This document shows positions 54,001 through 57,000 of a stretch of 64,000 nucleotides of DNA, piece after piece. This DNA is from Parasphingorhabdus sp. GTDB lineage: Bacteria > Pseudomonadota > Gammaproteobacteria > Arenicellales > CAJQKF01. A program made the position numbers. Position 1 is the stretch's first letter; every line of letters starts with the position of its first letter. The DNA is taken from contig JBLHGU010000004.1 of the NCBI GenBank assembly GCA_047615875.1, positions 4,955 through 68,954 of the forward strand. Reading direction: 5' to 3'.

Positions 54001-57000
54001 TGAAACGCCAGGGGTTGTTCAAACTTAAGCTCCATCTGTCGAATATCGTTCATAGCGGTCGAAATAAGCTCTAATATGTTACTTAATGTCGAATTTTAAT
54101 ATACTATAAATGAAGTCGAAAATCATTCAGCAAAGTCGAATAACGCAATAATCTTATTTGGAGTGTCGAAAATTACTACAAATCTCTGTAGGTTACGAAT
54201 TGATACTCAGCCGACCAACCTACTCAATCCTTAATTGCAGCGCAATAGCCTCGTCAATTCCTGTGACCCCGGGCGTATGATGAACAACTTCGCCGTTTAG
54301 ATTAATTAGTACACTGAAGGGAACAACCGGAATATTTAGACCGCTCATTATGGGCACATTCAATAAATTCGCCAGCCAGATATCAGGCTCAAAGGCCATC
54401 GGTAGAGTTAGTTGGTGTTCTTCGCGATACAGATAAACTGTCTCTATAGTTTCGTTAAAGCCGATATTAACGGCGATAATATCGATGTTGTCACTGTGGT
54501 TCTCGTACAGGGATTGAAGATGGGGCATCTGCGCCATGCACTGTGGGGGCACCAGGTAGCCCAAAATTTGACGTATAGAGGTTTTTCTCGCTGGCCTTCG
54601 ATAGTAATGACGGAACCATCAAGACCTTTCAGTGTTCGAGCTTCGGTCGCCGCTGCGGCCTGGGTTATGCCGATGGTAGATATTAAACAGGCAAGCAGCA
54701 CAATTAGAACCAGCAGGTGTTTGTTCTGATATTTCATGTGGGAAATTAACCTTGGATTTATAGTGTGGCTGAAAGATGTGATCGATCGGTAGCAATTTGC
54801 ACACAGTCTTGCAGGCTGCGACAACGGCAACTCATCATCTCGGCAAGTAAATCATCCATAATCTGCAGGCTCTTGATACGTGCTTGAACCTCGCAGCGTT
54901 TTTCCTTTACCAGAGGCGCAAACAAGCCTTTATCGACGGGCTTGTCCAGGGCATTCTCCAGCAATACACGAATCTCTTTGTTAGTGAATCCTGCCGCCTG
55001 GGATAGCTGCACAAATTGAATAGCGGTTATTACATCACTGGAGAATACCCGTTTTCCGGAGATCCGGGGCGGCGCCTGAATAAGGCCGGTTTTTTCGTAG
55101 TAACGAATCTTGGATATGGATAGGCCAAGCTTGTTGGTGACATCGCCGATCTTCATAATTCTGTGCCGATTGTGATCAGAAAATTCATTGTAGTACCTGA
55201 ATCAAGGTCGAGGTCAAGCCGAAATGGTGGTATTTCCTTTTGGTAACTTGCTATGCACAAGACGGACTTTAGCGCTCTGATATCCCATTTTAAGAGGATT
55301 TGATGCCATTGTGCGTTGTTTCATAGTCGGCGATTTCGTAGAATCCGACCCGGGTTGAATATTATGCCAACAGAGAACTTATTATGAATGAATGTCCAGT
55401 ATGCGGCGCCGAAGTAGCGATCAGTGCTGATGTGGTAAAAGGCGAACTACTCGAGTGTAGTGATTGTGGGACCGAATTAGAGGTCATTGGGGTGGAACCG
55501 GTTAAATTACAGGAAGCACCTGAGGCGGAAGAAGATTGGGGACAGTGAAAGTAGGGTTTCTAAGCTCGCTAATCCGGCGCGAAGAAAAGTTCTTAATTAC
55601 CTCGTTTAACGAGCATCCCCAGGTTGAGCTGGTGATGCTGGATGATCGGGAGCTGATTTTTGACTTGAAGAATCGCCCCAATGTGGATATCGTCGTCGAG
55701 CGCAGTATTAATCACTCCAGAGCATTACATGCCTTAAGATTGTTTAAGAGCCTCGGAATAACTTGTGTCAATTCCTACGATGTGGCGAATGTTTGCGGCG
55801 ACAAAATCCTTACCGCCGTTGCTCTGCAAGATGCCGGTGTCCCACAGCCTGAGGTCAGAATCGCCTTCACTGAGCAGTCAGCGCTGAAGGCAATAGAAGA
55901 GATTGGCTATCCGGTCGTGCTAAAGCCGGCGGTCGGGTCCTGGGGTCGGTTGCTGTCGAAAATTAACGATCGAGACGCAGCAGAGACCATTCTGGAGCAT
56001 AAAACTGTGCTGGGTAGCTACCATCACTCGATATTTTTTATCCAGAAGTATGTCGCCAAGAAGGGTCGGGATATTCGGGCATTTGTCGTTGGTGACGAGT
56101 GTATTGCCGCAATCTACCGTTCTTCGGAACATTGGATTACCAATACCGCGAGGGGTGCTACAGCTAGTAATTGCCCGCTAACCCCTGAGCTTTCAGAAAT
56201 ATGTGTGTCGGCAGCCAAGGCTGTGGGCGGCGGTGTGCTGGCCATCGACCTGTTTGAAAGTGATGATGGCTTATTGGTTAACGAAGTTAACTACACCATG
56301 GAATTTAGAAATAGCATTGATACGACCGGTGTTGATATTCCCGGCCGTGTTATCGATTATGTAGTACAGCAGGGCCTGGCCCAATTGTAAGGTCAGCGAG
56401 GCCAAATGATTAAAATTTCCATAGTTGGTGGCAGTGGCTATAGCGGCGGAGAATTACTGCGTCTGTTACTTGACCATCCCGGTGTCTCAATTCAGCAGGT
56501 AACCTCCGAGCGCTTCGCTGGTAAGCCGGTACACAGAATCCATCCGAATTTGCGCAAGCGTTGCCAGCTGAAGTTCTCGTCTATCGACGATTTGCAATCC
56601 TGCGATTTCCTGTTTTTGTGTCTTCCCCACGGCAAGGCCATGACTGAAATTGATCGTTTTCGAAAATTAGCCCCATCGATGATTGATTTAAGCGGTGATT
56701 TCCGTCTGCAGAGCGCTGAATTATTCGAGAAATGGTATGGCGAACCGCATAGCCGCCCTGAGTTGTTAACGGATTTTATCTATGGGATACCTGAGATAAA
56801 TCGCTCTGCCATTCAAAGTGCCAATTTGGTAACCGGTGCAGGCTGCAATGCCACGGCCACCATCCTGGCATTGCGGCCGTTGTTTAAACGCGGACTGGTA
56901 GAGCAGGCTGTAGTTGAAGTGAAAGCAGGGTCTAGTGAGGGTGGTAACAGTTTTAGTGAGGCCAGCCATCATCCGGAACGAAGTGGTGCGGTAAGATCTT

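Follow-up and report, generated by a model that had tools for sequence, protein, structure and literature searches.

Glutamine-terminated LysW carriers and a putative Cys-Ntn release hydrolase in a widespread type of lysine biosynthesis operon

Lysine biosynthesis on the amino-group carrier protein (AmCP) LysW is a textbook case of carrier-assisted amino acid synthesis and, to our knowledge, has always been described with a carrier that ends in glutamate and a release enzyme of the LysK type. All three LysW proteins characterised structurally, from Thermococcus (5k2m), Thermus (3wwl) and Sulfolobus (3vpb), end in EDWGE. Here we describe a lysW operon in which the carrier ends in EDWGQ, together with the related operons found in other genomes. 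The operon lies on a 64,000-nucleotide stretch of DNA (hereafter the window; contig JBLHGU010000004.1 of assembly GCA_047615875.1, positions 4,955 to 68,954). It shares with LysWXZYJK of Thermus thermophilus and with the LysW/ArgW systems of Sulfolobus and Thermococcus the Zn-ribbon carrier, the EDWG tail, a LysX of the alpha-aminoadipate (AAA) type, LysZ, LysY and LysJ; sister operons of the window also have homocitrate synthase, as the classical systems do. Unlike classical operons, those of the type described here encode Gln-ended carriers in about 40% of cases, have no LysK (an M20 metallopeptidase) at the locus, and carry between LysY and LysZ the gene of an N-terminal nucleophile amidohydrolase with a nucleophilic cysteine (Cys-Ntn; hereafter the Ntn enzyme). 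We propose, with a probability of roughly 0.6, that the Ntn enzyme acts as the release hydrolase in the place of LysK and also as the deamidase of Gln-ended LysW, both activities being read from gene content and fold.

The carrier of the window belongs to the LysW family by its globular domain. It matches PF21344 in Pfam (E = 6e-19) and passes the threshold of TIGR01206 (63.1 bits against a cutoff of 53.2); the four cysteines of its Zn ribbon (C4, C7, C25 and C28, forming two CxxC pairs) and the residues E49, E50, D51, W52 and G53 of the acidic tail are invariant in the alignment of homologues. The C-terminal Glu of the family is absent from the encoded protein, which has Gln54 instead, and the alignment to TIGR01206 ends at profile position 53 of 54, one before the consensus Glu. 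The Gln codon is directly followed by TGA (55546-55548). An earlier note on this DNA had pointed to the unusual ending, and translation of the open reading frame (ORF), together with the two family matches, bears out its description in every detail. The GTG start codon of LysX (55545-55547) overlaps the CAG/TGA junction of lysW (cAGTGA), and this GTGA overlap suggests translational coupling of the two genes. We considered whether the overlap forces the choice between Gln and Glu. It places no constraint on that choice, because a GAG codon would overlap identically, GAG-TGA and CAG-TGA both yielding GTGA; a constraint is also contradicted by the junctions found in operons with Gln-ended carriers, which include CAATAA, CAGTGA, CAGTAA and CAGTAG. 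The lysW/lysX junction of related operons is often CAATAA or GAATGA, and the arrangement therefore varies.

The Gln ending recurs among the relatives of this carrier. Among 67 close LysW homologues, 45 end in EDWGQ and 18 in EDWGE, and across 81 related operons (80 loci from a scan of a genome collection, and the window) there are 32 carriers with a terminal Gln (Q-type) and 49 with a terminal Glu (E-type). Most of the sequences come from metagenome-assembled genomes (MAGs). The Gammaproteobacteria are represented among the 80 loci by Arenicellales, sponge-associated Poriferihabitaceae and SUP05, and the other groups are Ignavibacteriota/Melioribacter, Gemmatimonadota, Acidobacteriota, Planctomycetota, KSB1 and Binatia. 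Family-wide, about 10% of LysW clusters are Gln-ended (13 of the best 150 representatives at 50% identity); the tails of these 150 include 104 DWGE, 12 DWGQ, one DYGQ and one DWGD. In about 300 sequences the last residue of an intact tail is either Q or E, with the exception of two Asp-ended proteins. The Asp-ended homologues P0410 and P0318 (EEDWGD) are rare and lie on short contigs, and could reflect either errors or a third kind of ending. The terminal Gln of Q-type carriers is written as both CAA and CAG. On a simple neighbour-joining tree of concatenated LysX and LysY, rooted at the midpoint and comprising 70 operons (27 Q and 43 E tips), Fitch parsimony counts at least 11 changes between the two states. 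Repeated switching between exactly Q and E is what would be expected if Gln becomes Glu post-translationally.

The gene order LysW-(homocitrate synthase in some phyla)-LysX-LysY-Ntn-LysZ-LysJ recurs in 69 loci out of 80; of the remaining 11, contig truncation accounts for ten and a split operon for one (L066). The slot of the Ntn gene between LysY and LysZ is constant across Gammaproteobacteria, Ignavibacteriota, Calditrichota, Acidobacteriota, Gemmatimonadota, Planctomycetota, KSB1 and Binatia. Closed genomes with operons of this type include CP179197.1, CP179198.1, OZ250151.1 and that of Acanthopleuribacter pedis (GCA_017377855.1). No Q-type locus with enough downstream sequence lacks the Ntn gene, a set made up of 26 genome loci and the window. 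Divergent Q-type carriers, with 44-65% identity to that of the window, also occur in Ntn operons, namely in the cultured Acanthopleuribacter pedis, in Caldithrix and in two metagenomic lineages, and there a true Ntn homologue is present and no M20 peptidase lies nearby. The divergent lineages with the gene include the contigs of the Q-type carriers P0381, P0239 and P0180, and a reverse look-up of two members of the Ntn family placed both in X-Y-Ntn-Z-J operons, one of them with a Q-type carrier. The locus L066, which is E-type and has LysX and LysY but lacks Ntn, LysZ and LysJ, was set aside: it is a split operon followed by opposite-strand genes, and is uninformative either way.

The association runs in one direction only. 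The earlier note had suggested examining whether a terminal Gln co-occurs with the Ntn gene, and had reasoned that a Glu ending in all Ntn-containing operons would mark the Gln as a lesion or error. Each Gln-ended carrier with sufficient flanking sequence is indeed accompanied by the gene, and the Ntn-containing operons do not all encode Glu; the gene also accompanies E-type carriers, in 43 operons, and is not peculiar to Gln-ended ones.

As a control, a metagenome collection was scanned with Thermus- and archaeal-type LysW queries and patterns stripped of their final residue, so that no bias towards Glu was introduced. All 80 of the resulting carriers end in Glu, and the Ntn gene is found at a single one of these loci, a stray operon of the Melioribacter type. 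LysY and LysZ without Ntn are present in 32 control loci, all with Glu-ended carriers, and the two genes are directly adjacent in 25 of the 32. The comparison of Ntn-type operons (27 Q, 43 E) with those lacking Ntn (0 Q, 32 E) gives p = 6e-6 in Fisher's test, in which the loci are phylogenetically related. Gln termini are restricted to operons of the Ntn type.

These distributions bear on the first explanation offered in the earlier note, by which the Gln would be a sequencing error or an inactivating substitution. That explanation fails, since the ending is conserved across phyla, was gained or reverted at least 11 times and sits in operons that are otherwise intact. A broader form of the same idea would hold all Q-type carriers to be non-functional, through decay of the pathway or noise in MAG assembly, and their association with the Ntn gene to be a phylogenetic accident. 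The prevalence of MAG sequences, the clustering of Q-type operons in few clades and the disregard of Fisher's test for shared ancestry all lend this some weight. Against it stand the multiple independent switches, the use of both Gln codons, the occurrence of the Q state in the genome of a cultured isolate and in several closed chromosomes, and the five enzymes of the Q-type operons, all of them intact and maintained at 50-80% identity. Since each operon has a single LysW, an inactive carrier would kill the whole pathway, and we regard wholesale loss of function as extremely improbable.

The control operons also show what is missing from the Ntn type. The gene following LysJ in them encodes LysK, the [LysW]-lysine hydrolase (NF003367, 441 bits, cutoff 363), and of the 29 control loci containing LysJ, 25 have it. 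A tblastn search with 16 LysK queries found no LysK-like match in 90 Ntn-type sequences totalling 1.46 Mb, a range that comprised flanks of up to 10 kb around the operons and the whole window. Ntn and LysK are thus mutually exclusive at the level of the operon, and, as far as gene content can tell, the Ntn enzyme has probably taken over the release step from LysK without being orthologous to it. Three of the LysK-type control loci (L102, L119 and L123) contain two LysX-like ATP-grasp genes, presumably LysX and ArgX paralogues for lysine and arginine.

One could alternatively divide the labour between two enzymes, such that the Ntn enzyme only releases lysine while an unlinked amidase deamidates the carrier, or only deamidates while an unlinked enzyme of the ArgE/LysK type performs the release. 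The presence of the Ntn gene beside 43 E-type carriers does demand a role beyond deamidation, and the search for LysK and amidases was confined to the loci and the window, with one Ntn-type locus (L172) having an amidase-signature gene just downstream of LysJ. An unrelated deamidase is, however, hard to reconcile with the restriction of Gln to Ntn-type operons (27/70 against 0/32), and no other gene co-varies with the Q state, nor is there a recurrent extra gene in the loci. The absence of LysK from 90 of 90 Ntn-type sequences, against its presence in 25 of 29 controls, likewise speaks against such a division. We consider it unlikely.

What kind of enzyme occupies the slot between LysY and LysZ? 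The family comprises 3289 homologues, which are mostly unannotated or called 'predicted glutamine amidotransferase'. The protein of the window begins MCRLLL, and C2 is retained by at least 90% of 55 homologues, which places the nucleophile directly after the initiator Met. Invariant motifs are GHGWG (34-38), HARSAF (with R76), NNMPF, FNGEL (with N102-G103) and GRIGAEK (114-120). The AlphaFold2 (AF2) model has a predicted local distance difference test score (pLDDT) of 90 and a predicted template modelling score (pTM) of 0.89. A Foldseek comparison of this model returns EgtC at the top (4zfl, 4zfk and 4zfj; E about 1e-12, template modelling score about 0.7), followed by 3mdn, PurF and GlmS (glutaminase domains in the last two cases) at 1e-8, all with probability 1.00. 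Model and matches together exhibit the four-layer alpha-beta-beta-alpha Ntn fold, and the family profile also matches 3mdn and EgtC at the sequence level. The protein shares the fold and superfamily of EgtC and is not an EgtC orthologue.

The putative active site can be compared with that of the glutaminase domain of Escherichia coli GlmS. A profile-profile alignment of the Ntn family to this domain was uninformative (probability 5%), and residues were therefore mapped through motif spacing and predicted secondary structure. R76 and N102-G103 match R73 and N98-G99 of GlmS with identical spacing. In GlmS, the Arg binds the alpha-carboxylate of the substrate, the Asn-Gly pair forms the oxyanion hole and D123 holds the free alpha-amine of glutamine. 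On this mapping, the invariant I116-G117-A118-E119 stands opposite T122-D123-T124-E125 of GlmS, which would leave no Asp at position 117. A Gly in this position would fit a substrate whose alpha-amine is engaged in a peptide bond, such as the C-terminal residue of a protein.

Taken with the gene content, this fold suggests how a Gln-ended carrier could be functional. LysW would be translated with a C-terminal Gln, whose gamma-carboxamide would be attacked by Cys2 of the Ntn enzyme, with Arg76 holding the alpha-carboxylate and Asn102-Gly103 the oxyanion, to give ammonia and LysW-Glu54. LysX would then join alpha-aminoadipate to the gamma-carboxyl at the expense of ATP, and LysZ, LysY and LysJ would convert the tethered aminoadipate to tethered lysine. 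The same Ntn enzyme would finally cut the gamma-glutamyl-lysine amide, yielding free lysine and regenerating LysW-Glu. The encoded Gln form would accordingly be a pro-carrier matured once, after which the Glu form would cycle through LysX, LysZ, LysY, LysJ and Ntn.

The chemical rationale is that gamma-glutamyl-NH2 and gamma-glutamyl-NH-Lys are linked by the same type of bond. An enzyme acting on gamma-glutamyl amides at the C-terminus of LysW should also hydrolyse the side chain of a terminal Gln, and an encoded Gln would thus be tolerated or exploited where the Ntn enzyme is present and would be lethal to the pathway where this hydrolase is absent. Such an enzyme with two activities would explain the free interchange of Q and E, the lack of Gln-ended carriers without an Ntn gene and the occurrence of the gene beside E-type carriers. 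It would also explain the lack of enzyme residues that track the state of the carrier: a mutual information screen of Ntn, LysX, LysY, LysZ and LysJ found no columns separating Q-type from E-type operons. Only hypervariable sites scored in this screen, and a Q-specific adaptation of the Ntn enzyme or of LysX was dropped from consideration on that ground. Among the explanations offered in the earlier note, deamidation of a Gln pro-form by the Ntn enzyme is the best supported, given that Gln is found only with the Ntn gene and that the closest relative in fold is a gamma-glutamyl-amide hydrolase. The framing of the note has to be adjusted, as the gene is also present in 43 Glu-type operons; the primary role of the enzyme is then probably the replacement of the missing LysK, with deamidation as a by-product of the same chemistry.

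Several observations weigh against this interpretation. The loci entering Fisher's test share ancestry and most of the sequences are derived from MAGs. The Ntn protein falls below curated cutoffs (GATase_6, 15.8 bits against 27; EgtC TIGR03442, 30.8 against 218.65) and shares no more than about 16% identity with EgtC. That the Asp binding the alpha-amino group has been lost, with Gly117 in its place, is a proposal and a matter of matching motifs and secondary structure rather than of structural superposition. A distant LysK or ArgE, encoded outside the searched flanks and window, could act in trans. Finally, an orphan Q-type LysW of Thermus-like character (P0285; L086, 2347-2541) has no LysX beside it and lies next to a patatin gene on the opposite strand; for this one Q-type carrier alone, the link to Ntn could not be checked.

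The ligase of the operon provides further constraints. An ungapped alignment with Thermus LysX (3vpd/1uc8, 306 bits) gives the window LysX the signature F180-I190-T201-N256-S257. This F-I-T-NS pattern has been assigned to LysX specific for alpha-aminoadipate, and I-Y-V-GF to ArgX (PMC12998189). The AAA-type signature implies that the operon makes lysine, and canonical ATP-dependent loading of the gamma-carboxyl is to be expected. The earlier note had also raised the possibility of ATP-independent loading, in which the Ntn enzyme would form a gamma-glutamyl thioester from LysW-Gln and pass it to the amino group of alpha-aminoadipate. Cys-Ntn amidohydrolases (class-II glutamine amidotransferases, GATases) pass through a gamma-glutamyl thioester, and its transfer to an amine is chemically conceivable in a first turnover. 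The comparison of operons does not support this proposal: every Q-type operon retains a highly conserved LysX with its AAA signature intact, no residue of LysX or of the Ntn enzyme differs between the two carrier states, and the E-type operons have the same Ntn gene. Hydrolytic release would moreover leave Glu on the carrier after one cycle, so that LysX would be needed anyway. We judge this route to be quite improbable.

LysX belongs to the RimK family (TIGR00768), the founding member of which extends a C-terminal alpha-carboxyl, and it could be argued from this that aminoadipate is attached to the alpha-carboxyl of LysW. The side chain would then be irrelevant and deamidation unnecessary. 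Under such relaxed requirements, other terminal residues should appear, which is at odds with the near-exclusive use of Q and E. The ungapped alignment to the Thermus enzyme, with its identical specificity signature, and the suitability of a Cys-Ntn glutaminase-type enzyme for gamma-amide rather than alpha-peptide bonds also argue against attachment at the alpha-carboxyl, and we think it highly improbable.

If the Ntn enzyme does combine deamidation and release, the terminal Gln might be more than a tolerated variant. It might serve as a latch, holding newly made LysW inert until the Ntn enzyme deamidates it, so that the same enzyme would gate both entry into the pathway and exit from it, as a metabolic counterpart of Pup and Dop with an independent origin and a different fold. 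We put this forward as a speculation and consider it doubtful. The idea could be extended to thioester-mediated transfer of the gamma-glutamyl group of the carrier to amines.

The features of the operon are collected in Table 1. All genes downstream of lysW lie on the plus strand and are tightly packed.

Table 1. Features of the lysW operon in the window
Feature	Position	Strand	Basis or remark
LysW, amino-group carrier protein, 54 aa	55384..55548	+	PF21344, TIGR01206; Zn ribbon, acidic tail EEDWGQ
Terminal Gln54 codon, CAG	55543..55545	+	Occupied by the ligation Glu in characterised LysW proteins
LysX, ATP-grasp ligase loading alpha-aminoadipate onto LysW	55545..56390	+	TIGR02144, 334 bits (cutoff 276)
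LysY, ArgC-type phosphate reductase	56406..57434	+	TIGR01850, 392 bits
Cys2 Ntn amidohydrolase, 225 aa, EgtC-like, class-II GATase fold	57456..58133	+	Motifs, AF2 model, fold match
LysZ, [LysW]-aminoadipate kinase	58130..58921	+	NF010659, 250 bits (cutoff 223)
LysJ, class-III aminotransferase ([LysW]-aminoadipate semialdehyde transaminase type)	58918..60084	+	PF00202, 8e-113

LysJ scores 434 bits with NF042418, which is under the cutoff of that model, and 428 bits with TIGR00707, above the cutoff. No homocitrate synthase, homoaconitase or homoisocitrate dehydrogenase was found within the window, the sole matches being those of LysX paralogues to LysX, and a scan of the whole window at Rfam gathering thresholds detected no riboswitch or other RNA upstream of lysW. 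A divergent gene at 54758-55156 on the minus strand, 228 nt upstream of lysW, encodes a MerR-family regulator that weakly resembles the CueR, SoxR and MerR models, scoring under the cutoff of each; it could regulate the operon, and it is not kept beside lysW among the related loci inspected. An ORF of 519 aa farther upstream (52494-54053, minus strand) contains the Fic-type motif HPFEDGNGRVHR and appears unconnected to the lysine operon. Proteins identical to the LysW and Ntn of the window carry the NCBI label of a 'Parasphingorhabdus sp.' MAG, an alphaproteobacterium, whereas the close relatives of the operon are all from Gammaproteobacteria. This discrepancy could reflect mis-binning or horizontal transfer.

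Some of the related loci depart from the usual arrangement. LysZ and LysJ lie away from the operon in L005, L007, L012, L015, L025, L040 and L085, and the Ntn gene there stays with LysW and LysX (and with LysY where present), which indicates that it is linked more tightly to the carrier and its ligase than to the kinase and the transaminase. A 2.4-kb gap between Ntn and LysZ in L019, a Poriferihabitaceae chromosome, was considered as the site of an extra pathway gene; it contains instead an inserted pair of opposite-strand genes (12870-14818, minus strand) with products of 425 aa and 223 aa. By eye, the 425-aa product resembles an ATPase of the AAA class and the pair a small cassette of the defence type, and the gap in L071 is similar. 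In L172, an Ntn-type operon in which no lysW was detected beside LysX, a PF01425 amidase-signature gene (8797-10215) directly follows LysJ.

In the literature searched, we found nothing relevant to a Gln-ended LysW or AmCP, to its deamidation or to an Ntn or amidotransferase partner, and no occurrence of 'EDWGQ'. The genome paper of Caldithrix abyssi gives the locus as 'LysWXZYJ and Hcs', without comment on the extra gene. The operons described here constitute a large and ecologically widespread type, with representatives in marine and sponge-associated Gammaproteobacteria, Ignavibacteriota, Calditrichota, Acidobacteriota, Gemmatimonadota and other groups, in which an unrelated Cys-Ntn hydrolase appears to have taken the place of the release enzyme and many of the carriers, as encoded, are unfit for loading. 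Should the dual activity be true, it would assign a role to a family of more than 3000 proteins and would fill the last step that seems to be missing, for want of LysK, from automated reconstructions of the lysine pathway. It would also represent a second, independently evolved instance of the logic of Pup and Dop, that of a Gln-capped carrier served by a single deamidase and gamma-glutamyl-amide hydrolase. A cultured host of a Q-type operon exists in Acanthopleuribacter pedis.

How does the proposed scheme relate to systems already described? The actinobacterial tag Pup carries a Gln at its C-terminus when first synthesised; Dop deamidates it, after which PafA attaches it via the gamma-carboxylate, and the removal of Pup from its substrates is likewise a task of Dop (PMC3474595). 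As with Pup, a small carrier or tag ends in Gln in some lineages and in Glu in others, and deamidation would precede ATP-dependent ligation through the gamma-carboxyl. As with Dop, one enzyme would both deamidate and cleave the gamma-glutamyl isopeptide, an ability demonstrated for Dop and here proposed for the Ntn enzyme. The two systems differ in that there is no homology between them: the carrier is the LysW Zn ribbon and the enzyme, which uses a Cys nucleophile, adopts the class-II GATase/EgtC fold, Dop and PafA being absent from the 50 fold matches listed for the Ntn model. They differ also in purpose, since the partner of LysW is the amino group of a metabolite in biosynthesis, whereas that of Pup is a lysine of a protein destined for degradation.

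The closest likeness in fold is to EgtC of ergothioneine biosynthesis (4zfj, 4zfk and 4zfl). Like EgtC, the Ntn enzyme is a stand-alone Cys-Ntn domain of the class-II GATase type, about 220 residues long, with the core motifs GWG, R-S-A, PF and NG found in both. EgtC, whose structures were solved with glutamine and with the gamma-glutamyl substrate, cuts a gamma-glutamyl amide to free an amine of the amino acid type, and this is the type of bond that links lysine to LysW. Unlike EgtC, the Ntn enzyme is encoded in a LysW operon rather than an egt cluster, and its donor would be the C-terminus of a protein, with the alpha-amine blocked. LysK, a member of the M20 family akin to ArgE and DapE, represents the opposite case. 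The reaction proposed for the Ntn enzyme is the same, from LysW-gamma-Glu-Lys to free lysine, while the fold and mechanism are unrelated, those of a Cys-Ntn hydrolase as against those of a metallopeptidase.

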